The notes: generated by a model not told the origin, from the letters alone. A stretch of 64,000 bases of DNA from Patescibacteria group bacterium (GCA_036835125.1 DAITMO010000001.1:421487-485486); one strand, 5' to 3'; positions 7,103-60,255 are shown, counted from the stretch's first letter. Program-made: numbers and translations.

Positions 7103-8824
7103 ATGACTGGAAAAATAAGGCTACTCTCTGTAATTTTTCTTTTACTTTTTTCAATTCTTGCAGCAAGACTTTTTTGGTGGCAGGTTGTTAAAGGAAGCTC
7201 ATTAGCAGGACAAGCAAGGAACCAGCATTCTTCATCAACTCTGACATCGGCTCCTAGAGGAAATATTTTAGCGTCTGACGGGACTCCTTGGGTGGCCAGA
7301 GTTCCTGCTTGGAATCTTTGGGCAAATCCTCGTTTGTTGGAGACTTCAAAAGATAAAGTAGCTGATAAAATTGCACCATTAACTTATGAAAAAGAAACGG
7401 AAAATGAGGATGAATATAAAGGTATATTAAATGAAAAAGGTAGATTGGTCTCACTTTTGTCTAAAAATGTAAGTTGGGTATCTCTTAAGCAAAAGATAGA
7501 CAATAACACTAAAACAAACATTGAGGCATTAAACATTAAAGGGATAGGTTTTGATTCTATTGAAAGTTCTTTTTATCCAGAAGCATCAATGGCAGCGCAA
7601 TTATTAGGATTTGTTGGAAAAGAATCTGATGGTACTGATATTGGTTATTTTGGGCTTGAGGGTTATTACAATTTACCTTTAAGTGGAAAACCAGGGTTTT
7701 TAGGTGGTGAAAAGGACGCGAAAGGATCTCCAATTTTGATAGACGGAACTACATCAGTATCGGCAGTTTCTGGAGTTGATCTTTTAACAAATATAGATAA
7801 AAGAATACAGATTGTAACGGAGAATGAATTAATAAAAGGTATTGAAAAGTATGGGGCAGTTGGAGGAAGTGTAACAATAATGGATCCTAAAACTGGCAAA
7901 GTTATCGCTATGGCAAGTTATCCTTCTTTTGACCCGTCAGATTACGGAAGATACAGTGACGCACTTTTTAAAAATCCCATAATCACAGACACTTTTGAAC
8001 CTGGTTCAATTTTTAAGGTTATTGTTATGGCATCAGGCCTTGATGCTGGTGTAATAACACCAGATACAGAATGTGACATCTGTGGTGGTCCCTTAAAACT
8101 GGACAAGTATTACATTAAAACTTGGAGTGACAAATATACTCCCAATATTACGATGACAGAAACAATAGTTGAATCGGATAATGTTGGAATGTCGTTTGTT
8201 GGACAAAAACTAGGGGCAGACACACTTTATGACTATTTAACTAAGTTTGGAATTGGTCAAAAAACTGGAATTGATTTGCAGGGTGAAGTAGCGCCAAAAC
8301 TTAGAGCTAAAGGAACATGGAATGTAGTAGACCTTGCTACAGCTAGTTTTGGACAAGGGGTTGCGGTCACAGGAATTGAAATGGTTAGAGCAGTTGCAGC
8401 AATTGCTAATGGAGGGTATTTAGTTACTCCAAAAGTTGTAGATTCAATAAAAGGTGATGAATGGGAGGAAAAAATTGACACAGACAAGCCTATTAGAATT
8501 ATTAGTGAAAAAGCTGCAGCAGAAATTTCTCAAATGATGGTAAAAGCTGCAAATGAGGGGGAGGCAAAATGGTGTAAAATTCCAGGTTATAACGTTGCAG
8601 GAAAAACTGGTACAGCTCAAATTCCAGTTGCGGGACACTATGACGCAACAAACACAAATCACTCTTTTATTGGTTTTGCTCCAGTGGGAAATGCTAAATT
8701 TGTAATGCTTGTTACTCTAAAATCTCCTCAAACTTCCCCTTGGGCAGCTGAGACTGCAGCACCCCTTTGGTATTCAATTGCTGATGACCTCTTTCCATAT
8801 TTTGGGATAGCGCCTGAGAAATGA
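7103..8824 (+). CDS. ftsI: peptidoglycan D,D-transpeptidase FtsI (class B PBP)
   Basis: N-terminal TM, PBP dimerisation domain, SIFK (SxxK), SDN (SxN) and KTGTA motifs. Confidence 0.85.
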   Translation: MTGKIRLLSVIFLLLFSILAARLFWWQVVKGSSLAGQARNQHSSSTLTSAPRGNILASDGTPWVARVPAWNLWANPRLLETSKDKVADKIAPLTYEKETENEDEYKGILNEKGRLVSLLSKNVSWVSLKQKIDNNTKTNIEALNIKGIGFDSIESSFYPEASMAAQLLGFVGKESDGTDIGYFGLEGYYNLPLSGKPGFLGGEKDAKGSPILIDGTTSVSAVSGVDLLTNIDKRIQIVTENELIKGIEKYGAVGGSVTIMDPKTGKVIAMASYPSFDPSDYGRYSDALFKNPIITDTFEPGSIFKVIVMASGLDAGVITPDTECDICGGPLKLDKYYIKTWSDKYTPNITMTETIVESDNVGMSFVGQKLGADTLYDYLTKFGIGQKTGIDLQGEVAPKLRAKGTWNVVDLATASFGQGVAVTGIEMVRAVAAIANGGYLVTPKVVDSIKGDEWEEKIDTDKPIRIISEKAAAEISQMMVKAANEGEAKWCKIPGYNVAGKTGTAQIPVAGHYDATNTNHSFIGFAPVGNAKFVMLVTLKSPQTSPWAAETAAPLWYSIADDLFPYFGIAPEK

Positions 8825-11153: not shown

Positions 11154-13163
11154 ATGATTAAAAACATTGATGAAGTTATTAAAAATATCTCTAACTTTCG
11201 TGGGATAACTGATAACTCAAAAGAGGTAAAAAATGGATTTATTTTTGTAGCTATAAAAGGATTAAAAACAAATGGCCATGATTACATTCCAGATGCCATT
11301 AAAAGAGAGGCTAAGTTAGTAATTGGCGAAAAAGATTTAGATTTTGAGAATTATATAAAAGTTGCTGACGGCCGTGAAGCTTTGGGAACTCTTGCCTCGG
11401 CTTTTTATGGTGATCCTTCACAAAAATTGAAAATTATTGGTGTAACAGGCACAAAAGGTAAAACCACAACATGTCATATAATTGAACATATTCTGAATTC
11501 ACTTGGTAAAAAAGTAGGAGTTTTATCTTCAATTTCTGTACCTGGACTTCATGTTACAACTCCAAATCCAATATTTCTTCAAAAAAAATTAGCAGAATTT
11601 GTAAAAGAAGGAAAAGAATTTGCAGTGATTGAGGTTAGCTCACATGGAATAGCTCAAAAAAGAATTGCCGGTATCAAATTTGATGTTGGGGTACTAACGA
11701 ATATTGCGCGAGAGCATTTGGATTATCACAAGACTTTTTCTGAATATAAAAAAGTTAAAATGTCTTTTATTAACTCCTGTAAAGAAAAAATTATTTCTCC
11801 TAAAACGCCGTCAATAAATATTTTACCTGGTGAATATAATAACTCGAATGCAGAGGCGGCAGTTGATGCTGTTGTTAGATTTGGATTGAATAAAAGCGAA
11901 GCACTTAAATCTCTTGAAACATTTAAGCTTCCAGAAGGCCGTTTGATGGAAATTAAAAACGATTTGGGAATAAATATAGTAATTGATTTTGCGCACACTC
12001 CAGGATCTCTTGAAGCAGTTTTAAAACACTTGAAAAAAGAAACAAAAGGAAACTTGATCTCGGTATTTGGTTGTGCGGGAGAAAGAGATCCAGGAAAAAG
12101 GTTTTTAATGGGAAAGATTTCTGTAAAACTTGCAGATTTGTCTATCTTTACATCAGAAGATCCAAGAACAGAAAATTTGTTTGAAATTATTGCCAAGATA
12201 GCCAAAGGTGCCAAGAGTATTGGAGGGATTGAGGATAAAGATTTTGTGAGAATTTATGAGAGAGGTGAAGCTATAGTTTATGCATTGACTTATGCAAAAA
12301 AAGGAGACACTATTGCAATACTGGGCAAGGGACATGAGAAAAGTATGTCATTTGATGGTTGGGAACACCCATGGAGTGACAAAGAAGTGGTCGAAAATTT
12401 TCTAAATAGAGACAAAAATTTGTCAGCTATTATTTTAGCGGCAGGAAAAGGATCAAGGATGCATTCTTCTTTACCCAAAGTTATTCACAAAATTTGTGGC
12501 AGGCCAATGATCTCATATACTTTAGAAAATTTGAGATTTGCTGGAGTTGGAGATATTACTGCAGTCATTTCGTTTAAAAGAAACGTTGTTTCAAAGTATA
12601 TTAAAGGAGCCATAAAGTTGGCTATTCAAAAAAATCCAAAAGGCGGAACAGCTGACGCTGCAAAAACTGGTTTTGAGAAAGTAGACAAAAACTCCAAAGT
12701 ACTAATTGTTATAAATGGTGACGATAGCGCATTCTACAAATCGGAAACAATTAAAAAAATTATTGATATTCACATGGAAAGAGATAGAAAGCTTACCTTT
12801 GTATCGTTAATAAAAGAAAACCCAACAGGTTTGGGACGAGTCATCAGGGGAGAAAATGGTCTAATTACAAAAATTGTTGAGGAAAAAGATGCAACTTTCG
12901 AAGAAAAGAAAATTAAAGAAGTAAACGATGGTCTTTATGTTTTTGATAGAGATTGGTTTTCAAAAAATATCAATAAAGTTAAAAGAAGTGCATCAGGCGA
13001 GCTTTATTTAGTTGATTTAGTAAAAATGGCAATTGATGAGGGGGTCAAAATGGCTACATATACTCTTCCGAACGATAATGAATGGCAAGGAATAAACACC
13101 CCTGAAGAGTTAGAGAAAGCTAGAAAGAAAATGGAAACAAGACTTAAAGATTTAAATGAATAA
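11154..13163 (+). CDS. murE: bifunctional Mur ligase (MurE-like) fused to a sugar-1-phosphate nucleotidyltransferase (GlmU N-domain-like)
   Basis: Residues 1-~420: IIGVTGTKGKTTTCHI, Mur ligase central and C-terminal domains. Residues ~425-669: LSAIILAAGKGSRMHSSLPKVIHKICGRPMI (NTP_transferase G-x-G-x-R motif), no LbH acetyltransferase repeats. Confidence 0.8.
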   Translation: MIKNIDEVIKNISNFRGITDNSKEVKNGFIFVAIKGLKTNGHDYIPDAIKREAKLVIGEKDLDFENYIKVADGREALGTLASAFYGDPSQKLKIIGVTGTKGKTTTCHIIEHILNSLGKKVGVLSSISVPGLHVTTPNPIFLQKKLAEFVKEGKEFAVIEVSSHGIAQKRIAGIKFDVGVLTNIAREHLDYHKTFSEYKKVKMSFINSCKEKIISPKTPSINILPGEYNNSNAEAAVDAVVRFGLNKSEALKSLETFKLPEGRLMEIKNDLGINIVIDFAHTPGSLEAVLKHLKKETKGNLISVFGCAGERDPGKRFLMGKISVKLADLSIFTSEDPRTENLFEIIAKIAKGAKSIGGIEDKDFVRIYERGEAIVYALTYAKKGDTIAILGKGHEKSMSFDGWEHPWSDKEVVENFLNRDKNLSAIILAAGKGSRMHSSLPKVIHKICGRPMISYTLENLRFAGVGDITAVISFKRNVVSKYIKGAIKLAIQKNPKGGTADAAKTGFEKVDKNSKVLIVINGDDSAFYKSETIKKIIDIHMERDRKLTFVSLIKENPTGLGRVIRGENGLITKIVEEKDATFEEKKIKEVNDGLYVFDRDWFSKNINKVKRSASGELYLVDLVKMAIDEGVKMATYTLPNDNEWQGINTPEELEKARKKMETRLKDLNE

Positions 13164-14364
13164 CATAAAAAAAATTCACATGATGGGGATTGGAGGAAGT
13201 GGAATGAGTGGCGTTGCCTATTTAGCTGAAAAAATGGGCTATATTGTGACAGGTTGTGATCTTGAAGAATCAACTGCTTATACAAAAAACATTTTTAAAG
13301 GACATTCTCCCGATCATTTGAAAGATATTGATTTATTGGTGGTTTCTCCGGCTGTTTTCTATCAGAATTCTGATAATCCCGAACTTCTTGAAGGTAAAAA
13401 AAGGGGAATGGTGATAACCTGGCAAGAATTTGTTGGCAGGTATATGACTGATGGCAAAAAACTAATTTGTGTTGCAGGAACTCACGGGAAGTCTACAACA
13501 ACAGCAATGGTAGGAAAGCTTCTTATTGATGTGGGGCTTAATCCGACAGTTTTGGTTGGAGCCAAAGTTCCTGAGTGGAATGGAAATGCAAGGTATGGCA
13601 CAGGAGAATATTTTGTATTAGAAGCAGATGAGTTTAATAACAATTTTCTTTTTTATCACCCCGACATAATTGTTTTAAATAATATTGAATTTGATCATCC
13701 GGACTTCTTTAAAGATGAGGAAGAAGTAAGGAGTTCCTTTGATAAATTTATCGGAAACCTAAAAGGAGAAAAGATTTTAATTACTTTAAATGACAGTTTG
13801 GACAAACACTTCAATCTCAAAGTAATGGGAGAATATAATCAGAAAAATGCAAATATGGTTTTTGCTTTGGGAAAGAAATTGGGAATTAGTGACGAGGAAA
13901 TTACTAAATCATTAGAATCATTTGAAGGAATAGGGAGAAGGATGGAGCTTATTGCTGACAGAAATGGAGTGAAAGTCTATGATGATTATGCACATCACCC
14001 CACAGCAATAAAGTTAACTCTCGAAGGAGTAAGAGAAAGATTTTCTGATGCTAAAATTTTAGTAATAGATGAACCACATGGATATAAAAGAACAAAAGCA
14101 CTTTTATCCGAATATGGGGGTGTTTTTGGTTCAGTTAATAAAGTAATTATTGGCCCCATATTTCAAGCTCGTGATGAAGTTGATAGTTCGATTACTCCTG
14201 AGGGTGTAGTGAAAGCATTAAAGCATAAAAATGCTATTGGACTAAATAGTTTTAAAGAAATAATTGAAGAGGTCAATAACGAGAGTAGAAAATATGACAT
14301 TATTGTAGTAATGGGAGCAGGCAAAAGCTATCTCTGGGCAAAGGAAATTGCAAAAATTATTTAA
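13156..14364 (+). CDS. murC: UDP-N-acetylmuramate--L-alanine ligase
   Basis: IHMMGIGGSGMSGVAYL N-terminus plus GTHGKSTTTAM P-loop. Confidence 0.85.
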   Translation: MNNIKKIHMMGIGGSGMSGVAYLAEKMGYIVTGCDLEESTAYTKNIFKGHSPDHLKDIDLLVVSPAVFYQNSDNPELLEGKKRGMVITWQEFVGRYMTDGKKLICVAGTHGKSTTTAMVGKLLIDVGLNPTVLVGAKVPEWNGNARYGTGEYFVLEADEFNNNFLFYHPDIIVLNNIEFDHPDFFKDEEEVRSSFDKFIGNLKGEKILITLNDSLDKHFNLKVMGEYNQKNANMVFALGKKLGISDEEITKSLESFEGIGRRMELIADRNGVKVYDDYAHHPTAIKLTLEGVRERFSDAKILVIDEPHGYKRTKALLSEYGGVFGSVNKVIIGPIFQARDEVDSSITPEGVVKALKHKNAIGLNSFKEIIEEVNNESRKYDIIVVMGAGKSYLWAKEIAKII

Positions 14365-14379
14365 CTAGTTTTTTGATTT

Positions 14380-15390
14380 ATGACAATGATAAAAATTGAA
14401 GAAAATAAATATTTTAAAGATCTTACAACTTTTAGAGTTGGTGGAAAAATTAAATATTTTGTGGAAGTAAAAGATGTTGAGGAAACAAAGGAGGCTTTGG
14501 TTTTTGCTAAAAAAAATAATTTAATAATTTTCATTCTTGGTGAAGGAAGTGATCTTTTGGTAAGTGATAATGGTTTTAATGGAATTGTTATAAAATTTGT
14601 CGGAGATTCATATAAAATTGATGGCAATATTGTTACAGCTCAAGCAGGTCTTTCTTGGGACAAACTAGTAGACATAACTGTAGAAAATGACCTTCAGGGT
14701 TTAGAATGCCTTTCGGGAATTCCAGGTACAGTTGGTGCGTCCCCCATTCAAAACATTGGTGCATATGGAGCTGAAATGTCTAATACTTTTGAAAAACTTG
14801 AAGCATTAAATTTGGAAAAAGGAAAAATAGAAGAGTTTGATAAGGAAAGATGTGAATTTGGATACAGAGAAAGTATTTTCAAAACTAAAGAATATTGGCA
14901 AAAGTATTTAATATTAAGTGTTTCATTTAAATTGAATAAAGGTGGCAAACCAACAGTTAACTACGATTCTTTAAAAGGATTGGTGAATAAAAGCTCTACA
15001 ATTTCTGAAATACGCGAAGCGGTAATAAAAACAAGGAATGAAAGACTTGAGAATCCAAAGGAACATGGCAATGCGGGTTCCTTTTTCCAGAATCCAATAA
15101 TTGATAAAAATAAGAAACAAGAATTGGAAGACTTATATCCGGATATAAAAATATTTCCATTTGGAGAAAACTTTAAGGTGTTTGCTGGCTGGTTAATCGA
15201 AAAGGCTGGATGGAAAGGACGTGTTCATAAAGAAGCAGGTGTTTCTCCTAAACATGCATTGATTCTAATTAATAGAACGAATAAAGCTACAGCCATGGAT
15301 ATTTATGAACTATCCCAAAAAATTATAGACGACGTTTCAAACAAATTTGGTGTAGAGATGAAAAGAGAGGTACAGTTAATTAATTTTTGA
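14380..15390 (+). CDS. murB: UDP-N-acetylenolpyruvoylglucosamine reductase
   Basis: FAD-binding PCMH domain (TFRVGGKIKYFVEV ...) and MurB C-terminal domain; 336 aa. Confidence 0.85.
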   Translation: MTMIKIEENKYFKDLTTFRVGGKIKYFVEVKDVEETKEALVFAKKNNLIIFILGEGSDLLVSDNGFNGIVIKFVGDSYKIDGNIVTAQAGLSWDKLVDITVENDLQGLECLSGIPGTVGASPIQNIGAYGAEMSNTFEKLEALNLEKGKIEEFDKERCEFGYRESIFKTKEYWQKYLILSVSFKLNKGGKPTVNYDSLKGLVNKSSTISEIREAVIKTRNERLENPKEHGNAGSFFQNPIIDKNKKQELEDLYPDIKIFPFGENFKVFAGWLIEKAGWKGRVHKEAGVSPKHALILINRTNKATAMDIYELSQKIIDDVSNKFGVEMKREVQLINF

Positions 15391-49587: not shown

Positions 49588-49618
49588 AAGGTAGTCAATT
49601 ATATCATTTACTCTCTTT

Positions 49619-49633
49619 TGGAGCGGGTGAGCG
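49619..49633. repeat. 15-bp direct repeat identical to the 3' end of tRNA-Gly (att-like; partner at 51032..51046)
   Basis: tggagcgggtgagcg is identical at 49619-49633 and 51032-51046. Flanks diverge immediately, and the second copy is the 3' acceptor/CCA end of the minus-strand tRNA-Gly. Confidence 0.8.
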
Positions 49634-49960
49634 TAATTGGCTCGGACCTATTTAGCCAGGACGAGTATATCAAACAATATCTACTCGATCCCACCTTACC
49701 ACTTATTTTTAAAGTTAAAATAGGTCTTCGCTATTACATTACCAGTGACCTTATTTTACAGCTAAACGTATTCAAAGACTATCTTGAGAAAATTAATCCA
49801 TTTCTGTTTCGAGATATATTTGGTAAACATCGCAAAGATCGAAAAATATGCTAACATTTGGATACCGAATGATCCCTGTAGTGAAAGTACCTTATTTTAG
49901 GAAGCGAATGTTGACAGTTAATTACTGATCCATCTTGGCTACAGGGACCGAAATTTATTT

Positions 49961-50491
49961 ATGATCGAAACACACCCGTTTGGAAGTTTTGTTCCTCCTA
50001 AAGCAAAATATTTATTACTGGGAAGCTTTACGACCAAAGAAGCTTTTGATGACAAGAAAAAAGCAGCCTACGTTTGGTTTTACTCCAATGGCGGAAGAAA
50101 TCAGTTTTGGCCAATTTTACAAGAGATCTATGGAATTAAGCTGCAAACCAGGGATGAGATGCAACAACTTTTTACCGATTTGTATATGGCTCTGGCGGAT
50201 ATTATTTATCAGTGCGAAAGAAAGAAGACAAGTAATTTGGATATTAACCTAACAAATATTGTTTACGCGTTGGATGACATAACCAAGATTTTAAAAGAAA
50301 ATAAGATCGAAAAAATATTTTTTTCTAGTCGATTCGTCGAAAATACATTCCGACGAGTTTTTAAACATGTTGTAAACCAATATCCTAAGATAGAACTGAT
50401 TACATTACCAAGTCCATCTCCACGGTACGTCCAAATGACAAAGATTGAGAAAGTTAAACGGTATAAAGAATTATTACCCAAACTAAGGTAA
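49961..50491 (+). CDS. uracil-DNA glycosylase superfamily protein (Mug/TDG-like)
   Basis: YLLLGSFTTKEAF ... YSNGGRNQFWPIL (compare Mug GINPG ... NRFW) and C-terminal LPSPSPRY (UDG motif B, HPS/LPNPS-like). Confidence 0.5.
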   Translation: MIETHPFGSFVPPKAKYLLLGSFTTKEAFDDKKKAAYVWFYSNGGRNQFWPILQEIYGIKLQTRDEMQQLFTDLYMALADIIYQCERKKTSNLDINLTNIVYALDDITKILKENKIEKIFFSSRFVENTFRRVFKHVVNQYPKIELITLPSPSPRYVQMTKIEKVKRYKELLPKLR

Positions 50492-50980
50492 TACTTGCAA
50501 GACTTGATCTATAATTGACTCATTCTTGTCAAATATAAATTCTGCTTCGACATCTTTTCCTTCAAGAACTAAAGGTAACCAAAGTTTTTCGTCAGGCCAC
50601 ATCTTTTCAAACGGAATGTCATCTTTATTGAACCATTGTGGATTCATTTCTTCTGTTTCAACAGGATCGCCATTCCATTCACTGACCAAAAATACGCTAA
50701 CTTGTTGACCCCATTCTGGATTGTCGGGGAAATAGCACTTCAAAGTCGCTTTTTTGGTTAAGTTGCTAACAACAACATTAATTTCTTCTTGAGTCTCCCG
50801 TATCGCTGCATTTTCAATAGTTTCATCATCATTCTTCTTTCCGCCAATTCCATTAAACTTTCCAACAGCAAAACCACGCTTTTTCATAGCCAAAAGGACT
50901 TGATCTCCTTTAATTAGAAAACACAAAGTGGCTTGTCGAAGGGGATGTGTGAATGATTTTTTATAGTCAAAAATATTCAT
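50483..50980 (-). CDS. NUDIX hydrolase
   Basis: Nudix box GGKKNDDETIENAAIRETQEEINV (Gx5Ex7REUxEExGU); 165 aa. Confidence 0.8.
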   Translation of the reverse strand: MNIFDYKKSFTHPLRQATLCFLIKGDQVLLAMKKRGFAVGKFNGIGGKKNDDETIENAAIRETQEEINVVVSNLTKKATLKCYFPDNPEWGQQVSVFLVSEWNGDPVETEEMNPQWFNKDDIPFEKMWPDEKLWLPLVLEGKDVEAEFIFDKNESIIDQVLQVLP

Positions 50981-51031
50981 TTATGTATTTGTCAAGCAAC
51001 TTTGTGTACATTTCTGTAGGTAATTCTCATA

Positions 51032-51717: not shown

Positions 51718-51796
51718 ATTATTTCACCTCCCCCTTAAGGCAGGTAAGTTAGCCTGAATTTAGATGAAGTGGGGTGTGAAGTCAAGTACCTATTTT

Positions 51797-52501: not shown

Positions 52502-52782
52502 GAGGTCGTAGCTCAATTGGTTAGAGCGCTTCCCTGTATAAAGTGGCAGCTCTTAAGAGTAATCTTGAGATGATAATCAGGCTAATTCGGGAAATGCCTT
52601 TGAAAGAAGGAGAATCCCGAGCTAAATCTACGCTCAATTAAAAAATGAACGTAGTAAATGTGTAGAGACTATATACCTGATATCCTACCTGGTTCACCCA
52701 GGGGATAATGAGATAGTCCACCTTTTCAGAAATGAAAAGTTTTGCACGGAAGAGGTTGCGAGTTCGAGTCTCGTCGACCCCG
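52502..52782 (+). tRNA. tRNA-Asp (anticodon GUC) interrupted by a group I intron between nt 35 and 36
   Basis: 5' exon 52502-52537: acceptor gaggtcg, D-arm gctc-aattggtta-gagc, anticodon stem cttcc, then loop nt ctgt. 3' exon 52745-52782: cac-ggaag (stem partner)-aggtt-gcgag-ttcgagt-ctcgt-cgacccc-G. Spliced loop is CUGUCAC (as in E. coli tRNA-Asp), discriminator G; one A-C mismatch at 2:71. Confidence 0.8.
52538..52744 (+). ncRNA. group I self-splicing intron (207 nt) in the tRNA-Asp anticodon loop
   Basis: Internal guide GUGGCAG (52543-52549) pairs with 3' exon CAC (P10) and 5' exon CUGU (P1, U.G at the 5' splice site); terminal omega-G at 52744. Conserved P (aattcgggaaa), Q (aatcccgagc), R (gtgtagagactata) and S (gagatagtcc) elements, with gacta/tagtc forming P7. 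Confidence 0.8.
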
Positions 52783-54267
52783 CCCAGAGTGACGGTACTC
52801 AGGTTTTAGGAGTACATCATAGGGCATTTTGAAGCTAAAAACAGGGTTTTTGTTATCCAAATAGAAGTTCTCACCGATATCCATAAGTAATTTTCTCTTC
52901 TCTAAAATTTTATCGCTTTCCATAACACTTCGTGCGTAAAAAGCGTTATCTAGAAATTCTTCAGCTAGTTCCAACCAATTTTCTTCTGAATTTTTGACAT
53001 CCCTAATTAATCCCTCGATTCTAGCCTGTTCACTTAAAGATATATTCTTTTGGATCATAAATTCATCTCTAGTAAGTTCATTATTTGCACGCATTTCAAT
53101 TAATCTACTTATTTTGGTCTGAATCATTCTTTCTTCCTTATTCAGGTGTTCAATTTGTTCATTGTTTCTATTCGATTGATCCTTATTTTTAGCTTTTAAA
53201 AGTTTCACTCCAAGCTCCCAAACATCTTTATCAATCGATATCTTGGAGATTTTATATAACAATCTACCTTCAAAATTTTCCAATCTAACTGGTGATTGAT
53301 CACAATTTCCTTTACGTTTTGTGCAGTGTAAATAAACATATCTGACTGTTCGGTTGGTTTCTTTGTAATATTTAGTTTTGAATGTTGTGGTTATGGCGGA
53401 ATTACATGATGGACATTTTAAAAGGCCATTATAGCTCATTTTATTCCAAATATTCACTTGCGGCTTTGATCGGTCTTTTAACTTTTCTTGTGCGGTATCA
53501 AACAGCGTCTTAGTGATTAGTGGATCATAATTCCCTTTGTAAAGTTGCCCTTTATATTTGAAATAACCATAATAGGATGGATTTGTAAGCATTCGGTGAA
53601 TTTGTTCTTTACAAAGTTTTTCACCATTCCTAGCAGTTAAACCTTGTGAATATAAAAAATTCGCAATGTTTGTAAGCGAATACTGACCAGTAGCTTCCAT
53701 TTCAAAAATTTTTTTAATCAACGGAGCTTCAAATCCGTCTGGAATTAGATTCTTTTTACCTTTCTCGCCGACCATTTTATAACCAAAGAACGAATAACCA
53801 GGATATTCTCCTCGTTCAACCTTGTGCTTTAAACCTCTCAAAACATTTTGGCTCAATACTCGAGAATATTGATTAGCCATTCCAAAATGAATTTGAAGTA
53901 TTAGGTGGTCTGAGTCTGGATTATAAATTTCTCCCGTGGGTGTTCTTATTTCTTTTAAAACACCATCTTGCAATAACTGAAGTATTTCACCCCCTTCTTT
54001 TGGATTTCTACTTAACCTATCTGGTTTCCAGGTAAGTATTGCATCAGCCTTATTAGATTTAATAAGTTCTAACATTTCATTAAACACGACACGTTTATTT
54101 GGTTTGTAGGCAGATTTACTTTCTTGTAAACGGTAAACAATGGGCAAAGATTCTTTCAATGCATATTCTTCACATTCTAAATTCTGGTCGTTTATTGAAG
54201 CCACTTGTTTCTCTTTTGCTTCAGAGGACTTCCTGGAATATCTAATATATCTTAATTTGTTATTCAT
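52726..54267 (-). CDS. large serine recombinase (integrase)
   Basis: N-terminal resolvase catalytic domain (RYIRYSRKSSEAKEKQVASINDQ ... ILTWKPDRLSRN), recombinase domain and Cys4 zinc ribbon (CPSCNS ... LHCTKRKGNC); 513 aa. The last ~19 codons are the antisense of the tRNA-Asp 3' exon. Confidence 0.85.
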   Translation of the reverse strand: MNNKLRYIRYSRKSSEAKEKQVASINDQNLECEEYALKESLPIVYRLQESKSAYKPNKRVVFNEMLELIKSNKADAILTWKPDRLSRNPKEGGEILQLLQDGVLKEIRTPTGEIYNPDSDHLILQIHFGMANQYSRVLSQNVLRGLKHKVERGEYPGYSFFGYKMVGEKGKKNLIPDGFEAPLIKKIFEMEATGQYSLTNIANFLYSQGLTARNGEKLCKEQIHRMLTNPSYYGYFKYKGQLYKGNYDPLITKTLFDTAQEKLKDRSKPQVNIWNKMSYNGLLKCPSCNSAITTTFKTKYYKETNRTVRYVYLHCTKRKGNCDQSPVRLENFEGRLLYKISKISIDKDVWELGVKLLKAKNKDQSNRNNEQIEHLNKEERMIQTKISRLIEMRANNELTRDEFMIQKNISLSEQARIEGLIRDVKNSEENWLELAEEFLDNAFYARSVMESDKILEKRKLLMDIGENFYLDNKNPVFSFKMPYDVLLKPEYRHSGRGRRDSNSQPLPCKTFHF

Positions 54268-54308
54268 AATTAAAAACCTTATTCTAATCTTAAAAGAAAT
54301 GTAAAAGA

Positions 54309-54749
54309 CTAGGATATTTTGATCTCATCATCTTTCTTATCTGATAAATTGAACATTATTTTTGACAACTCGTCTTCTGATTTTAAATAGTATATTGCCA
54401 CATTTGGCAATGACTTTTTTGTTAGGATATTTGCTGTATTTACCTTGAACATGTCCAAGTTTTTTATATACGAGACTCCATTATTTTCCTCCAACAACCC
54501 CTTTTTTATTAATAATTTTCTCAACCTATGAACTTTACTATAACTACAACCCCAAAGTTCTGAGAACTCCTCATCACTTTTAAGTATAGCTCTATAATAC
54601 TTATGTTTTCTATCCCAGTCTGCTTGCATTGAAAACAAAATGTATGCACTTAATTCTATTAAATTCACGACCCCTCTACTGAGTAGATATTGTATACATC
54701 TCAATATTACAATATAACCAGAGTATTTTGTAGAGTATTCAATATTCAT
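54309..54749 (-). CDS. hypothetical protein with putative winged-helix DNA-binding segment
   Basis: 146 aa; WGCSYSKVHRLRKLLIKKGLLEE resembles an HTH recognition helix; no family assigned. Confidence 0.3.
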   Translation of the reverse strand: MNIEYSTKYSGYIVILRCIQYLLSRGVVNLIELSAYILFSMQADWDRKHKYYRAILKSDEEFSELWGCSYSKVHRLRKLLIKKGLLEENNGVSYIKNLDMFKVNTANILTKKSLPNVAIYYLKSEDELSKIMFNLSDKKDDEIKIS

Positions 54750-54766
54750 ATTAAATTTGTATATCT

Positions 54767-55000
54767 TTACCTAAAAATTATTGTTTTTAATCTTCCAATT
54801 GATTCATAGTATGTTCTGGCGTTAACTAACAATTCTCCAAAAAAGTATTTTTTTGATATGCTTTCGCAAAGACCTATATTTTCAAAAACAAAAAAACAAA
54901 TGTTTTTGATACGTTCTATTTTTGAGATTTGTATGCCATAAGTAATCAAGGCGGCTGCTTCTGCCAAATCTCGTGTTTTGTATTCTTCAGAATTTCTCAT
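54767..55000 (-). CDS. hypothetical small protein
   Basis: 77-aa ORF immediately upstream of 54309..54749 on the same strand. Confidence 0.3.
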   Translation of the reverse strand: MRNSEEYKTRDLAEAAALITYGIQISKIERIKNICFFVFENIGLCESISKKYFFGELLVNARTYYESIGRLKTIIFR

Positions 55001-55185
55001 ATTGCATTTTCTTTATAAATCTAAAAGCATTTTCTATATATGAGGTAAGATTTACGGCTATTTGTTTAATTTCCAAATCAGACAGTTGCCTTTTATATCG
55101 AGGTTCAAAAACTTTTTTTATGTTTAATTTTAGTGTGTTATCAAGCCATGTAATTTCCATATCCATTGATTAAAGATTTGCCAAC

Positions 55186-55211
55186 AAAAAACCAGGCCAA
55201 GCAAGCCTGGT
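55186..55211 (-). terminator. rho-independent terminator (minus strand)
   Basis: Stem accaggc/gcctggt with loop caagcaa, followed on the minus strand by TTTTTT (plus strand: aaaaaaccaggccaagcaagcctggt). Confidence 0.45.
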
Positions 55212-55607
55212 ATTACAATCCTTAATTAGCCTAATGGCTAAAACCTAAACAGGTTATGGATATGGCTTTCGACAATACTATTGTCTGTAGCTTCCAAAAA
55301 TAATTTTAGTTAGGTGTTTACTAATTTGTCAACACGACGCAATGTAATAAATGTGGAACCTAAAAACTGTAACGAGGGTACTGGTAGTTCAATCTTAAGG
55401 ATTATTCATTTTGTTAAAAGTCATTGCATACACAGAGTGGAGGGGATACTACTTGCTAGTGCTTGTTAATATTTGTCAAGTTCTTGCATAGTCATTTATT
55501 TAAATATGTTATGCTCTTATTGTTATTGCTGGTTGGAAGGCAATAACTGGCAGAATCCTGTGCCTAATCCATCGCAAAAAGGGTATAGTTCCCATACACA
55601 TAAAGCC

Positions 55608-56225
55608 CTAGTTACTTTGTGGTCTTACTGCACAGGAAGTTTGATACCATATGGGGGTAAATTTTCCTTTATTGTAAGTGTATCTAGTGACTCTATATTC
55701 ACCATTGTTCCAATCAATAGTCTCATGTAGAAAGAAACCATTACTATCTCCGGCTTTTGATATATTCACACTGGCTCCCTGGTATTTAAAAACTATGAAT
55801 CCATCCTTAACAATCACTACATCATTTGGAGTGTGATTCATTGCAGTATTTGCTGTTAAAATTCTTTCATCTATTTGATCACTATCAACATCAAACTTGG
55901 TTTCTGTCCAAGGATTGATACTTTCAGGGGTTGTATAAAATTCACCTCCAAATGGTTCTTTTGTCGAATCAAATTTTTCTTTAAGAGAAATGATTTTTTT
56001 ATTTGAAGTAACCAGAGAAGGAGGATATGAAGCAATTACTTCATATAGCACATCCGAAAGATATTCTTTAGGAAATTCTTTTCCTACATAATGTGGACAT
56101 ATAATTTGAGTAAAGTTTGGTTGTCTAAGATTTTTTGACCTATCAAATATTGTGTTACTAACTAATAAATAAGTTCCAATTATCGAGACTAATGATACTG
56201 CGATGTGGGAGAGTAACTTTCTCAT
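55608..56225 (-). CDS. hypothetical secreted protein
   Basis: 205 aa with N-terminal signal/TM (MRKLLSHIAVSLVSIIGTYLLVSN); overlaps the upstream ORF by 4 nt. Confidence 0.4.
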   Translation of the reverse strand: MRKLLSHIAVSLVSIIGTYLLVSNTIFDRSKNLRQPNFTQIICPHYVGKEFPKEYLSDVLYEVIASYPPSLVTSNKKIISLKEKFDSTKEPFGGEFYTTPESINPWTETKFDVDSDQIDERILTANTAMNHTPNDVVIVKDGFIVFKYQGASVNISKAGDSNGFFLHETIDWNNGEYRVTRYTYNKGKFTPIWYQTSCAVRPQSN

Positions 56226-56437
56226 TTACAAGGTTTATAAACATTAAACCTTTCACATCCAATTCCAGTAAAGTTATTTATCTCTGTTTCCCAGCCACCT
56301 TTAGTGTATGAGAACCTGTTCAACCAAAGCAACAGAATTTGGAGCAAGACAATAATGATTAGAATCACTCTCGCGAAGTATTTTTGATCAACTATTTTTT
56401 TTATTATTTGTAAAAACTTATTCAAAGATTTTTTCAT
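56222..56437 (-). CDS. hypothetical small membrane protein
   Basis: 71 aa with one TM; translationally coupled between the S26 peptidase gene and the secreted-protein gene. Confidence 0.35.
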   Translation of the reverse strand: MKKSLNKFLQIIKKIVDQKYFARVILIIIVLLQILLLWLNRFSYTKGGWETEINNFTGIGCERFNVYKPCK

Positions 56438-57141
56438 TTTGAAAATAATTTAAACATAAATTTGCCAATAATATTTTGTTTTTTGACGACTTGGATATCG
56501 CCACCTCTTTTGTCAAAAAGTACAAGATATTCATCATCTTTCAGTGAAACATTTTGTACCCTATTTTCAGCCCACTGAATCCAATCTGCATATGGTTCAC
56601 TAAGACTATTACCATTAACTACAAGCTCACCTGGGGCAATCTGGAGTGTTTCATTTGGCAAACCCACTATTCTACCCATCCTCTCACTATTGCTAGATAT
56701 GTAGTCAATAACATCGCCTCTCTTCGGAGGGTTTATCTTATAAATAAATTTATTTACCAAGTATGTATCATCATGCACATACAATGGTTCCATTGAGAAT
56801 CCATCAACAATGGCATAGCGAAAGAGACTGGCCCATAAAATCACAATAACAATAAGGCTTGCTACAAGAATTCCGACAATCCTTATTATTTTCCAGATTA
56901 GTTTTTTAGAATGAAGCCAGATTATCATCCAAATAGGAAAACTAAATATACAGGTGAGTAAAGAAATAATTAATGGTAAAGATATCCATAAAGGAGCCGT
57001 ATTAGAAATAAAACCTATTCTAAAAACATCCAGGATAAGAAAAATTACAAATACTATAAACGAATACAGAGAGATTTTCTTTAACAAATTATTTTCATAT
57101 AATTTGTTCTTATTTAGTCCAGGCACGGATTTTTTATCCAT
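56434..57141 (-). CDS. S26 family signal peptidase (SipW/TraF-like) with extended N-terminal multi-TM region
   Basis: IVDGFSMEPLYVHDDTYLVNKF ... PKRGDVIDY ... GLPNETLQIAPGELVVNGN (S26 Ser/Lys dyad context), preceded by ~100 aa with 3 TM helices. Confidence 0.65.
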   Translation of the reverse strand: MDKKSVPGLNKNKLYENNLLKKISLYSFIVFVIFLILDVFRIGFISNTAPLWISLPLIISLLTCIFSFPIWMIIWLHSKKLIWKIIRIVGILVASLIVIVILWASLFRYAIVDGFSMEPLYVHDDTYLVNKFIYKINPPKRGDVIDYISSNSERMGRIVGLPNETLQIAPGELVVNGNSLSEPYADWIQWAENRVQNVSLKDDEYLVLFDKRGGDIQVVKKQNIIGKFMFKLFSK

Positions 57142-57238
57142 ATGAAAGTAATAATTAATCAGATTTTACGCCCTTATTGTAAATAATTGCAAGATATATC
57201 TGGTAAATATATAGCTGGTAATTTATTAACCTTTAGAA

Positions 57239-57451
57239 ATGAATTACCAAACAATATACAGAAAGCTAGGTGAAAGAATTGAATGGTTCAGAAAAGAGAA
57301 AGGAATGACACAAGAGGAGTTGGCAGAAAAAGCTGGTTTACATAGGGCATATTTTTGGGATATAGAAAGGGGTAGAAATATCTCAGTAAGAACAGCGTAT
57401 TTGATATCCAGGGCGTTAGAGATTAAACTATCCACACTTTTCGATTTTTAG
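57239..57451 (+). CDS. XRE-family helix-turn-helix transcriptional regulator
   Basis: 70 aa; MTQEELAEKAGLHRAYFWDIERG is a canonical Cro/C1-type HTH; divergent from the S26 operon. Confidence 0.8.
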   Translation: MNYQTIYRKLGERIEWFRKEKGMTQEELAEKAGLHRAYFWDIERGRNISVRTAYLISRALEIKLSTLFDF

Positions 57452-57521
57452 TTAAAATATTACTTTAATTTTGCATGTTTGCATCTTTGTTATAAAATAA
57501 CTTAGTTCTGTCTAAAACTGA

Positions 57522-58511
57522 ATGACCAAAGCTCAATTAGAAACAAGTATTAAGACATTGGCTGAATTAAGAGATTCTAACGAGATTATCTTTTATTTGA
57601 CTAGTGACAAAAAACCTCCAGAATTGTTTGCAACGGCGATTGCAACAGATACGTTAGCTATATTTGAAAAACATCTATCAAAGATTGGTCAGAAAAATAA
57701 AATTTCACTTTTTCTTAATACAACTGGAGGTAGTCTCGAGGCACCATGGCCGATAGTGTCTTTAATACGTGAGTATTGCAAAGAGCTTGAAGTAATTGTA
57801 CCTTTTCAGGCCTTGAGTGCGGGTACACTTATTTGTTTGGGTGCTGATAAAATTGTTATGACTCCATCAAGTTTTTTAAGCCCAATTGATCCGAGAGGTT
57901 CTTACAGACTTGGTGCTGAAACGAAAAGTATTCAAATAGAGGATGTTGTTGGTTTTATTGACTTTGCTAAGAATAAAGTTGGACTATCGGAACAGGGTTC
58001 TTTAGCCGAGGTTATGAAACTACTATCATCAGAGATACCTCCTTCGATATTGGGATCGGTGAACAGAACCCATTCACTTATAAGAATGCTTGCTGGAAAA
58101 ATGTTGAAATTGCATAAAACAAAACTGGATGATAATCAAATTCGACAGATTGTAGAAAATCTAACTGAAAAGCTATATTCACACCAATATTTAATTGGTA
58201 GAAAAGAAGCGAAAACCGTAGTTGGTTTCCATGGCATAATTCATAATGCGACCTCAGATGAAGAAAAACTAATAAAACAATTAATGAAATATTTTTCTGA
58301 CGAGATGGAATTATCCAAAAAATTTGACCCTGCCGAATATTTACAAGGTGATGCTGTTGAAAATACAATTCGAGTTTCTAGGGCTATTATAAAAAGTTCT
58401 GCTGGTCAGGACACTTATACAACTGATTATAGAATACAGAAAATACAAGATCCGGCTGCTCCCAAACCATTTAATGTAAGTTGGTCTGACAAAGAATGGA
58501 TAGAAAAATAA
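57522..58511 (+). CDS. ClpP-fold serine peptidase of the SDH (serine dehydrogenase proteinase)/S49-like family
   Basis: LFLNTTGGSLEAPWPIVSLIREY (compare ClpP INSPGG) and VPFQALSAGTLICLGADKIVM (nucleophile Ser in LSAG, as in SDH-family AKSAATLIALGADEIVM); 329 aa. Confidence 0.45.
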   Translation: MTKAQLETSIKTLAELRDSNEIIFYLTSDKKPPELFATAIATDTLAIFEKHLSKIGQKNKISLFLNTTGGSLEAPWPIVSLIREYCKELEVIVPFQALSAGTLICLGADKIVMTPSSFLSPIDPRGSYRLGAETKSIQIEDVVGFIDFAKNKVGLSEQGSLAEVMKLLSSEIPPSILGSVNRTHSLIRMLAGKMLKLHKTKLDDNQIRQIVENLTEKLYSHQYLIGRKEAKTVVGFHGIIHNATSDEEKLIKQLMKYFSDEMELSKKFDPAEYLQGDAVENTIRVSRAIIKSSAGQDTYTTDYRIQKIQDPAAPKPFNVSWSDKEWIEK

Positions 58512-58567
58512 GTATTTATGAAGATGACAAAACTGGTTTGAAAAGGGGGTGAAAATATAAAAGATAT

Positions 58568-58810
58568 ATGACAAACAACGACAAATTTGTAAAAACTACC
58601 AGCTATACTGGACAGTTACCAAACACGGGTATTGTTCAAGAAAATACAGCAAAAACCTCGTCTGAACGTGACTATATAGTAATTGATCAACAAGAGCCAT
58701 TTTCAAGCCATCAGTTTTTAACAGTTGATAATAATGATGAAGTAGATGAGGAGATAATAAAAGAAATATCTAATATAAATTACAAACCGATATTATCGTC
58801 GGCTTTATAA
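58568..58810 (+). CDS. hypothetical small acidic protein
   Basis: 80-aa ORF following the protease gene; acidic C-terminus (DNNDEVDEEIIKE). Confidence 0.3.
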   Translation: MTNNDKFVKTTSYTGQLPNTGIVQENTAKTSSERDYIVIDQQEPFSSHQFLTVDNNDEVDEEIIKEISNINYKPILSSAL

Positions 58811-58817
58811 TCCATGA

Positions 58818-59369
58818 ATGTATACGGCAATAAATCCTCAAGAAATTCTTCAAGGAGATTTGATAGTTGATTATGAATTTATTGCACCACCAACAGATGA
58901 ATTGTTGGTGGTTGAGAGGAACCAAAGTGGTGTTTTGATTACTAAACCAGTTTCACAGGTGGTTAAGCCATATATAGGTGGTAAGATAGCCGTCGTAGCT
59001 AATTCTTTCGTTTCAGATGCTATGGTGATATCACAGTCGTGCGATATCCAACGGCGAGATTATGTGCATTTATGTCCAGTACATAAATTAGGAAACCTAA
59101 TTACAGAATTAAGTTCTAAAGGATTTGAACAAAAAAGAATAGATGGCGTTTTGGACGGCTTGAGAAAAAATACAATAAATTATTATTTTTATCTACCACC
59201 AGGCTCAATAAACGAGATTCCTATCGAAGAAAGCTATGTAGATTTACAGTTTGTGGGAATGGCACCTCTTTTAACACTTGGGACTTATTCTAGAACCCTA
59301 TCACTTACTGATTTAGGCAGACATCGTCTTACATTCAAGCTAACTAATTTGTATAGTAGACCTATTTAG
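58818..59369 (+). CDS. hypothetical protein
   Basis: 183-aa ORF, no motif; followed by a clear terminator. Confidence 0.35.
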   Translation: MYTAINPQEILQGDLIVDYEFIAPPTDELLVVERNQSGVLITKPVSQVVKPYIGGKIAVVANSFVSDAMVISQSCDIQRRDYVHLCPVHKLGNLITELSSKGFEQKRIDGVLDGLRKNTINYYFYLPPGSINEIPIEESYVDLQFVGMAPLLTLGTYSRTLSLTDLGRHRLTFKLTNLYSRPI

Positions 59370-59466
59370 AACAGTGAAAAAGTTCTGGAGATAGTCAACT
59401 AAAGCCCGCTTGTATATTGTAATTTTGACTTCCATCTTCAGTTGTAGTAGTATGCACTTATAATTT

Positions 59467-59499
59467 CAGGCTAAATGCAGCCTGATTTTTTGTTTTTTT
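59467..59499 (+). terminator. rho-independent terminator
   Basis: caggct-aaatgc-agcctg hairpin followed by aTTTTTTgTTTTTTT. Confidence 0.6.
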
Positions 59500-59640
59500 A
59501 GGCTTAAGCTATCTTGTACTTTAAAAGTTGCGGATTATTAGAAAAAACTCCTTCTTAAGTGGGTAGTTTTCTGGATATTACGTATCTGGAAAAATACCCA
59601 CTTGGGTAGAAAATTTTTTTTCGGAAAAGGAGTGTGTCAA

Positions 59641-60093
59641 ATGAAAACAAAAACAATCGGTTACATAATTTGGACGATTGTAGTTATCGCTGCCCTTATC
59701 TTCGTTGGTATTCAAGTTACGAAGGACCGAGTGTACATCGGGACCAAGCATGAATTCAGCACCGACAGGACGATTCAAATTGATGCTAATAAAGTAACCT
59801 TTCAGGCGGCATCGTCTGATTTCTTCGTTCTTCGAAAGGTGAGTGGTGAAACCATCATAGGTTCTCCCGCACCCGCCCCGCTAAGATGGTCAAGTGATTT
59901 GTATTTCACTGCTGGACCACAAGAAGTTCCCGGCGGCACATGGTTATTCGCGTATGGAACTGCTACAGTGAATATCACGAGCGACAGACCTGTAACTGTA
60001 CGATTGATCCAAGCAGATCAGGGAAGGTATTGGGTTTTAATAATAATGTCTGCTTTTCTCGTGTGGATATTAGGCATCTTTTTAAATCCCTAA
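59641..60093 (+). CDS. hypothetical membrane-anchored/secreted protein
   Basis: N-terminal TM (IGYIIWTIVVIAALIFVGI) and C-terminal TM. AAGGAG RBS 8 nt upstream of the ATG at 59641, preferred over the tracked 59602 start. Confidence 0.4.
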   Translation: MKTKTIGYIIWTIVVIAALIFVGIQVTKDRVYIGTKHEFSTDRTIQIDANKVTFQAASSDFFVLRKVSGETIIGSPAPAPLRWSSDLYFTAGPQEVPGGTWLFAYGTATVNITSDRPVTVRLIQADQGRYWVLIIMSAFLVWILGIFLNP

Positions 60094-60255
60094 TGAGTAC
60101 ACCCGTAACAATGTCCAAGAAACAGACCCTCGGTAGAGAAATTATTAGGCTAATATAGCTAATTTTTTTTATCAATACCGAGGGTGTTTTCAATTATTGA
60201 AGATAAAAATTCTAAATACATAATAGTAAGCTTACCTAGTGTTATATAATGGTTT

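Follow-up and report, generated by a model that had tools for sequence, protein, structure and literature searches.

We describe a 6.6-kb integrative element next to an intron-containing tRNA-Asp(GUC) gene in a 64,000-nucleotide stretch of a Patescibacteria group bacterium genome (DAITMO010000001.1, 421487-485486; hereafter the window). Very probably, it is neither a prophage nor a conjugative element, and was inserted at the extreme 3' end of the tRNA gene by a large serine recombinase (LSR) through recombination between an element-borne attP and a host attB site. The window has a GC content of about 32%, and its closest public relatives are metagenome-assembled genomes of Candidatus Microgenomates / Patescibacteria, within the Candidate Phyla Radiation (CPR). 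The loci compared with it carry numbers beginning with L.

Both junctions of the element can be read from the sequence (Table 1). At attL, the tRNA T-arm and acceptor strand (B arm) are followed by a 5-bp overlap, CCCGC, and a P' arm in which the last conserved codons of the LSR gene also lie. At the other end, attR came to light as a 30-nt match at 59380-59409 when the flanks of relatives were compared with the window by sensitive BLAST, and consists of a P arm, the same overlap and the host flank B'. The P arm recurs at the LSR-distal island end in three related islands, L015, L017 and L020 (nhmmer profile, E 1e-8 to 2e-10). The P' arm is near-identical in L015 and L017, looser in L020 and missing from island-free tRNAs. 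Island-bearing genomes share a tRNA-side sequence, ...CCCGCC(C)(A/T)GAGTGACGGTACTC(A/C)GGTTTTAGGAGTA, which the island-free tRNAs lack.

The block is not conserved across related lineages. Six relatives with PolX proteins about 76-79% identical (L008, L014, L097, L009, L095 and L099) keep both flanks and lack the island, and no gene between 52.7 and 60.1 kb has a counterpart in the island-free relatives' loci. The interval between LysM and PolX is only 0.24-0.7 kb in L008, L014 and L097, with little beyond tRNA-Asp; the gap of 0.25-0.9 kb in L008, L014, L010 and L013, whose PolX proteins are 50-77% identical to that of the window (tblastn), holds an intron-less tRNA-Asp and short spacers, and in L011 the gene order is unchanged and the gap is 2.3 kb. 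L094, L095, L097 and L099, found through PolX homologues (77-81%), are likewise without an LSR; the nearest PolX relative (81% identical) lies on a 3.5-kb contig. One of the empty sites is that of L099, which has an intron in its tRNA-Asp, a PolX 77% identical and no LSR. It reads ...GTCGACCCCGC-AGTGTCCTATAATCTTGACTTTTGGCTTCAGTTGTGA..., and joining window position 52783 to 59410 gives ...GTCGACCCCGC-TTGTATATTGTAATTTTGACTTCCATCTTCAGTTGTAG..., so that the two are collinear across the junction, including the TTGACTT...CTTCAGTTGT blocks, and the B' flank aligns with the empty site.

The closest LSR homologues, in L015/16 (81% identical), L017-19 (78%) and L020 (71%), sit at the same LysM/tRNA-Asp locus. 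PolX follows on the far side of the island in L015 and L017; the contig of L020 ends before it. The LSR gene converges on tRNA-Asp in L015, L017 and L020, with overlapping 3' ends; the tRNA is split by an intron in L015 and intron-less in the other two. An LSR-borne island with a junction at the 3' end of this tRNA-Asp was the core of the original prediction for this locus, and the two att junctions (attL at 52779-52783, attR at 59382-59409), the six empty relatives and the alignment with L099 now bear it out.

Table 1. Coordinates of the element, its att sites and neighbouring features in the window, with attR sequences of related islands (P arm / overlap / flank)
Feature	Position	Strand	Remarks
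tRNA-Asp(GUC) exon 1	52502-52537	+	host DNA, target gene; matches intron-less tRNA-Asp of relatives
Group I intron, 207 nt	52538-52744	+	host DNA; between anticodon nucleotides 35 and 36
tRNA-Asp exon 2	52745-52782	+	G73 at 52782, then CCC to 52785; antisense fully covered by LSR reading frame
Large serine recombinase (integrase), 513 aa	52726-54267	-	Pfam domains; stop codon 52726-52728
attL	52762-52815	+	B arm, overlap CCCGC, P' arm
attL B arm GTTCGAGTCTCGTCGAC	52762-52778	+	tRNA T-arm and acceptor strand
attL overlap CCCGC	52779-52783	+	tRNA positions 70-74
attL P' arm CCAGAGTGACGGTACTCAGGTTTTAGGAG	52784 onward	+	also encodes last conserved LSR residues (...PYDVLLKPEYRHS)
Integrative element	52784-59409		6,626 bp, delimited by attL and attR
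Winged-helix-like protein, 146 aa	54309-54749	-	conserved integration module
DUF5659 protein, 77 aa	54767-55000	-	PF18903
Conserved small protein, 59 aa	54987-55166	-	47-51% identical in L015, L017, L018, L020
Noncoding stretch, ~441 nt	55167-55607		no Rfam match
Cargo operon: S26 signal-peptidase-like (235 aa), 71-aa and 205-aa proteins	55608-57141	-	PF10502, TIGR02227
Cargo operon: XRE regulator (70 aa), SDH/ClpP-like serine protease (329 aa), 80-aa and 183-aa proteins	57239-59369	+	PF01381, PF01972
attR	59372-59430	+	P arm GTTCTGGAGATAGTCAACTAAAG (59382-59404), overlap CCCGC (59405-59409), host B' flank TTGTATATTGTAATTTTGACTTCC
Membrane-like open reading frame, 150-163 aa	59602-60093	+	between attR and PolX; outside element
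attR, window			GTTCTGGAGATAGTCAACTAAAG / CCCGC / TTGTAT...
attR, L017			GTTCTCGAGATAGTAAACTAAAG / CCCGCCA / AATAGG; native tRNA tail retained
attR, L015			GTTCTCAAGGTAGTTAACCAACG / CCCGC / TCGATGG; ~30 nt before PolX
attR, L020			GTTCTCAAGGTAATCAACTAGTG / CCCGC / TTTGC

The LSR contains a Resolvase domain (PF00239, E 2.2e-19) and a Recombinase domain (PF07508, E 2.2e-16, residues 180-266) by Pfam. The zinc-ribbon model PF13408 reaches 20.9 bits, under its cut-off of 25.3, and four Cys residues at 285/288/315/322 form a CxxC...Cx6C pattern. Ser14, within RKS, aligns with the catalytic Ser, within RVS, of the resolvase-family domain 3guv, which is the sole solved-structure match and spans the catalytic domain alone. 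The protein matches phrog_95 'integrase' (E 3e-69). A collection of 5.8 billion proteins yielded 386 homologues (E 1e-3, among 8,000 scored candidates), essentially all from CPR and most of them 496-500 aa long with about 96% query coverage. A scan of IMG/VR with the LSR gave no match, and known phage LSRs are at most 27% identical to it. The best matches in the phage collection are two unannotated human-faecal 'Bacteriophage sp.' contigs, MT836653.1 (9.3 kb) and MT837677.1 (6.4 kb), which are sized like the elements described here and align with 93-94% of the query at 27% identity.

The 513-aa LSR had been thought to end inside the 3' exon of the tRNA, with its last ~19 codons formed by tRNA antisense. 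Its Resolvase and Recombinase domains stand, the zinc ribbon remaining sub-threshold, and the tail is indeed antisense; the reading frame, however, crosses the whole of exon 2 and stops 17-19 nt inside the intron. In an alignment of LSR C-termini, conservation ends at ...FSFKKPYDVLLKPEYR(H/T)(S/N)G, around residue 494-496, beyond which the tails vary in length, and many of them contain 'RDSN', the antisense translation of the universal T-loop GGTTCGAATCC. Thus, the last ~17-19 residues are read-through past the conserved end, not conserved protein. The lesson for annotation is that the C-terminal 'RDSN...' tails of many such LSRs are antisense T-loop read-through and no sign of protein conservation. 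From the reconstructed attP, an LSR of 517 aa ending ...HSGRALVDYLQNFFTVLNRSTIQIS is predicted for the excised element, as against the 513 aa, ending ...HSGRGRRDSNSQPLPCKTFHF, encoded after integration.

The B and P arms have in common the motif GTTC-N6-(T/C)(A/G)GTC, which in the tRNA is the T-loop GTTC with T-stem and acceptor strand. Its start is separated from the overlap by 17-18 nt in the B arm and by 23-24 nt in the P arm, an outward shift of 6 bp seen in all seven elements for which both junctions are known. In a model of LI integrase, the zinc-ribbon motif of attB lies 5 bp nearer the centre than that of attP (PMC3783163), and the 6-bp shift may echo this arrangement, as a resemblance and not a demonstration. 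A P-arm profile detected equivalents with tRNA-specific tails in L031, L033, L034 and L046, such as ...GTGCCTGCCAATAAGG for tRNA-Trp in L033 and ...GTGCCAGCCAAATC in L046. By eye, CTGNNNANNGTC is common to P and the reverse-complemented P', which form an imperfect dyad. Since this dyad is centred on the CC at positions 2-3 of CCCGC, the crossover dinucleotide would be CC at tRNA positions 71-72. The window overlap is 5 bp long, and those of relatives 4-8 bp; the reconstructed junctions are ...GTTCTGGAGATAGTCAACTAAAGCCCGCCCAGAGTGACGGTACTCAGG... for attP (85 bp, 59372-59409 joined to 52784-52830) and ...GTCTCGTCGACCCCGCTTGTATATTGTAATTTTGAC... for attB (80 bp).

We propose a model for integration. 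The attP site would be located at the 3' end of the integrase gene, its P' arm encoding the last conserved residues, and the P arm would come to lie at the opposite end of the linear integrated map. The attB site would be made up of the tRNA T-arm and acceptor strand, with strand exchange taking place within CCCGC (tRNA positions 70-74). As attP and attB have the same overlap, integration would restore the tRNA without change; only the nucleotides past position 74 are replaced, and consequently no CCA is encoded. Left without a stop codon of its own, the integrated integrase reading frame runs on via attL and adds about 17-19 codons of antisense tRNA.

The association with tRNA 3' ends extends across the LSR family. 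A metagenome scan recovered 67 loci with LSR relatives 26-70% identical. We evaluated 49 loci, 46 from the scan together with L015, L017 and L020; four end before the LSR stop, which leaves 45. In 35 of the 45, ARAGORN calls a convergent tRNA that contains the stop, at a depth of 13-121 nt (Gln 22, Asn 4, Asp 3, Leu 3, Trp 2, Ser 1). Three further loci (L015, L025 and L036) have a group I intron, hence a split tRNA, at the LSR stop, and two more (L035 and L055) a tRNA cut by the contig end, giving 40/45. Of the five left over, four have a P-like arm directly against the P' arm, which makes an attP-like junction, and the fifth, L056, has only a tRNA 3' half at the stop. As tRNAs cover only about 1.2% of bases, chance is excluded as the source of this association.

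P-overlap-P' junctions resembling attP were seen directly after the LSR in L046 (11440-11580 and 4441-4482), L023 (3352-3399) and L039 (~4040-4125). The one on the 270-kb contig of L046 clearly reflects two different elements in tandem at one tRNA; those on short contigs could be free forms or tandem elements.

Eleven elements could be delimited and range from 5.6 to 10.8 kb; a small gene module is common among them and none has virion or conjugation genes. Taken together, we lean towards the view that these LSRs form a large undescribed CPR-wide clade specialised on tRNA 3' ends. Its attP would lie in the stop region of the integrase gene, with a P arm that mimics the T-arm motif (GTTC-N6-YRGTC) in a position shifted by 6 bp, and its specificity would have been re-aimed among at least six tRNA species through core-proximal bases only. 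The clade would mobilise non-phage, non-conjugative elements of 5-11 kb with defence- or conflict-like cargo (caspase-like, HEPN/AbiU2, Macro, ClpP-like proteases), which could be satellites of CPR phages. Size, the XRE regulator and the weakly replication-like winged-helix protein would suit a PICI-like phage satellite; Terminase_2 occurs in L020, and the window element has no packaging gene.

The conserved module consists of the 59-aa protein, the DUF5659 protein, the winged-helix protein and the LSR, and the cargo is lineage-specific. Copies of the 146-aa winged-helix-like protein, 45-47% identical, stand beside the LSR in L015 and L020; it matches DnaD-like and replication-initiator PHROGs weakly (E ~2e-4), and its positional equivalent in L018 and L019 carries PF13730 HTH_36. 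DUF5659 is the most conserved accessory gene of the module (9/11 delimited elements), and its AlphaFold2 model (pLDDT 86) has no informative fold match. The small module proteins may act as a regulator or a directionality factor. The S26 peptidase, the XRE regulator and the SDH-type protease named in the original prediction were all identified by Pfam. The S26-peptidase operon is not present in related elements, and the XRE/protease operon matches phrog_11747 (E 1.8e-40) and phrog_4575. PADLOC recognised only the XRE protein in the cargo, with generic control-protein and capH models. What sister islands have in common is limited to the LSR, the 146-aa protein (L015 and L020), DUF5659, the 59-aa protein and, loosely, XRE, and the rest of their cargo is entirely different: caspase-like Peptidase_C14 in L015 and L017, a Macro-domain protein in L015, and HEPN_AbiU2 with Terminase_2 in L020. 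Judged from these sister-element genes, one might guess at a role of the window cargo in conflict or defence.

A 607-nt noncoding stretch described earlier in this block holds the conserved 59-aa gene, and ~441 nt of it remain noncoding. No Rfam family matches these (55167-55607), and a terminator-like hairpin, CCAGGC...GCCTGG with a T-run, lies at 55188-55214 (-), about 400 nt downstream of the 205-aa gene, leaving a long untranslated stretch. LOOT RNA (RF03000, 71-72 bits) was found in or beside the elements of L015 (8188-8304, -) and L046 (15748-15862, -) and has no copy in the window.

The distribution of the element bears on its mobility. A neighbour-joining tree of PolX has the topology (L017,(L015,((L008,L014),(window,L009)))), on which the island-bearing genomes are paraphyletic. 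This implies either several integrations or several scar-free excisions, and therefore site-specific mobility on an evolutionary time scale. Several observations weigh against the proposed explanation as a whole. The tree is built from a single gene and has no support values. LSR identities to the related islands (81%, 78%) are similar to those of the host PolX (75%, 70%), so long vertical residence with turnover of cargo is possible. The source population shows no excised circle or empty site: all 13 contigs of this population, found by exact-protein look-ups of the LSR, PolX, the 150-aa and the 183-aa reading frames, are collinear with the integrated form, and a terminal-repeat test for circular contigs was negative. 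No near-identical copy of the element occurs elsewhere, the closest LSR being 81% identical, and no recombination directionality factor was identified. The overlap is only 5 bp long, and the crossover position has been deduced, not observed. Near-duplicates among the loci of the family survey (for example L037/L038, L070/L071, L072/L073/L078 and L046/L048) mean that fewer than 40 cases are independent. The element may still be active today.

The same observations raise the possibility of an old, vertically inherited and immobile remnant, whose absences would be deletions and whose LSR would have been kept for a host function. The lack of excision products in the population, the host-like divergence of the LSR and the complete turnover of cargo between related islands would all fit. 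We regard it as unlikely, because the empty sites bear no scar where the att site lies, and the P and P' arms and an intact LSR have been kept across islands 71-81% apart. The architecture is moreover found again at other tRNA species, for which repeated retargeting and integration are required, and L023, L039 and L046 carry attP-like P-overlap-P' junctions.

An integrative element ending at attR is also to be preferred over one that spans the whole distance from the tRNA to PolX (52726-60250), as the original prediction had it, with the reading frame at 59602-60093 as cargo. That reading frame matches no family and lacks homologues at the loci of all relatives, and the entire LysM-PolX interval is variable among relatives. 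Nevertheless, the conserved P arm and overlap end at 59409, and the sequence from 59410 onward aligns with the flank directly after the unoccupied L099 tRNA-Asp, which makes the longer island highly improbable and its claimed extent 846 bp too long. The 9-bp inverted repeat (60127/60184) once considered a border mark lies outside the element and is at chance level: 6.8% of spacer shuffles contain such a repeat and 11 occur in 52-61 kb. The earlier remark that no repeat defines the right border is confirmed as regards long repeats. A search for direct and inverted repeats across 52.3-60.6 kb gave chance-level matches only, with no long repeats flanking the block, and was blind to the att overlap because 5 bp is too short. 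Island and flanks do not differ in GC content or skew.

LSRs are typical phage integrases, and a degraded prophage that has lost its structural genes would agree with this, with the weak resemblance of the SDH/ClpP-like protease to head-maturation proteases, with Terminase_2 in L020 and with the true LSR prophage at the neighbouring tRNA-Gly in L015. We consider it barely plausible. Searches of 52.8-59.4 kb with Pfam, PHROGs and NCBIfam revealed no capsid, portal, terminase or tail genes, only the ClpP-like protease, and all 11 delimited elements of the clade are 5.6-10.8 kb long without capsid, portal or tail genes. The LSR has no match in IMG/VR, and known phage LSRs stay at or below 27% identity. 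Pfam and NCBIfam gene models likewise gave no conjugation or relaxase match in the element, no oriT search having been made.

It is scarcely credible that the intron-containing tRNA-Asp is itself element-borne, as a replacement tRNA: it does converge with the LSR in every island and, relative to LysM and PolX, is turned the other way in L008, L014, L097, L010 and L013, yet L009, L095 and L099 are flipped alike without an LSR element, the tail at attR (CCCGCCA in L017) likewise has the flipped direction, the P arm comes without a tRNA body, and there is no remnant of a second tRNA-Asp.

The orientation of the tRNA is not tied to the LSR. It is flipped relative to LysM/PolX in the window and in L009, L095, L099, L015, L017 and L020, unflipped in L008, L014, L097 and the outgroups L010 and L013, and on the PolX tree the flipped genomes do not form a single clade. 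The LSR as cause of the flip was ruled out, since L009, L095 and L099 are flipped and have none. A remnant of an ancestral minus-strand tRNA-Asp was looked for beside LysM or PolX and not found. The host flank past attR (59425-59475) carries TTGACTTCC...TAATTTCAGGCTAA and resembles the LysM promoter region downstream of tRNA-Asp in unflipped relatives, a second copy of which lies upstream of LysM (51750-51795). These sequences suggest an inverted duplication of tRNA-Asp together with its downstream flank.

The tRNA-Asp gene contains an intron, as had been proposed. It matches the group I family RF00028 (Rfam, 52522-52739, 75.2 bits); ARAGORN misses the unspliced tRNA and folds the spliced form, with exon limits set by comparison with intron-less relatives, into a tRNA-Asp cloverleaf. 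The same intron occurs in the island-free L009 and L099. Group I introns splitting tRNAs at anticodon 35/36 were located in L009 (8394-8635), L015 (11526-11713), L025 (6523-6718), L036 (11529-11740) and L099 (9120-9308). Some of these introns have an LSR beside them and others do not, which shows intron and island to be independent of each other. Directly 5' of the intron-containing tRNA-Asp, L009 (7948-8358, +) and L015 (11751-12161, -) encode a 136-aa protein, with a PDDEXK_5 domain called in the L015 copy and 70% identity in the L009 copy. It is probably a free-standing homing endonuclease, from a family that includes I-Ssp6803I; the window lacks it and has an unrelated 142-aa reading frame there instead.

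The acceptor stem of the window tRNA-Asp has an A2.C71 mismatch (GAGGTCG/CGACCCC; 52503 and 52780). The same mismatch is found in the island-free L095 (8418-8494), and other relatives have A2:T71 or G2:C71. It was ruled out as a by-product of integration, given that C71 is in both attL and attR and that L095 shares the mismatch.

The earlier description of a recombination hotspot is reasonable, as relatives differ in the tRNA-Thr/Gly/Asp interval. In L015, a further LSR (12870-14525, -; 551 aa, 30% identical) runs antisense through the whole tRNA-Gly and heads a prophage-like block to 21611 with ParB/methylase and GpA terminase genes, the same geometry at another tRNA. L095 has a 22-nt direct repeat of the tRNA-Asp 3' end (8480-8585), about 70 nt downstream of the gene, which resembles a scar left by a different element, probably one with a tyrosine integrase. 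The interval from tRNA-Thr to tRNA-Gly, 0.07-4.5 kb among relatives, is a second variable spot; in the window (49600-51000) it holds a 176-aa reading frame and a NUDIX gene that have no equivalent at the locus of any relative.

The LSR clade described here, with tRNA targeting as its rule, both att arms readable from sequence and natural retargeting among tRNA species visible, offers a testable model for how LSR half-site recognition is re-aimed. It may also supply compact, factor-independent integrases with known sites for CPR/Patescibacteria, for which, to our knowledge, there are currently no genetic tools, and it gives an initial view of what the small integrative elements of reduced CPR genomes look like and carry.

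The element shares with canonical LSR systems (Listeria A118/LI, Bxb1, phiC31, SPbeta) the order of resolvase, recombinase and a putative four-Cys zinc ribbon, short att sites, an imperfect attP dyad and the lack of long direct repeats. It differs in that the window LSR is only about 25-27% identical to any phage LSR, that the target is a tRNA 3' end instead of a protein-coding gene or intergenic site, and that attP overlaps the integrase stop region, so that the tail of the reading frame changes upon integration. Serine integrases have been described as not known for tRNA targeting, with 14/297 serine-integrase islands predicted by TIGER and experimental proof requested (Mageeney et al., PMC7192596). 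Ghinet et al. 2011 called tRNA-targeting cases 'rare' and listed integrases of Mycobacterium actinomycete integrative and conjugative elements (AICEs) at tRNA-Leu and the small phiRSM recombinase at tRNA-Ser (PMC3218068). Those examples likewise pair a serine recombinase with a tRNA attB, and phiRSM also uses the tRNA 3' end. However, its recombinase is without the large C-terminal domains, and the AICE, TIGER and phiRSM cases are isolated, whereas here a whole CPR clade (~30-100% identical) is involved, with 40/45 loci and at least six tRNA species.

Tyrosine-integrase islands (P4-like, Islander-type) resemble the element in having an integrase that abuts the tRNA end, a restored target, a sporadic distribution among relatives and a tRNA hotspot, represented here by the L095 scar and the L046 tandem elements. 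They differ in catalytic family and mechanism and have identity blocks of ~15-50 bp compared with 5-8 bp here, where the crossover would fall in the acceptor and discriminator positions. The recombinases CcrA/B/C of the staphylococcal cassette chromosome, the best NCBIfam matches, are also LSRs that place a non-phage cassette in the 3' end of a conserved, RNA-related gene (rlmH); the window LSR scores 67-88 bits against their equivalog cut-offs of 700-900, acts as a single recombinase and has a different target. The element is in kind an ordinary island; it is unusual in that its LSR clade is systematically paired with tRNA 3' ends and that attP is placed in the integrase stop region.

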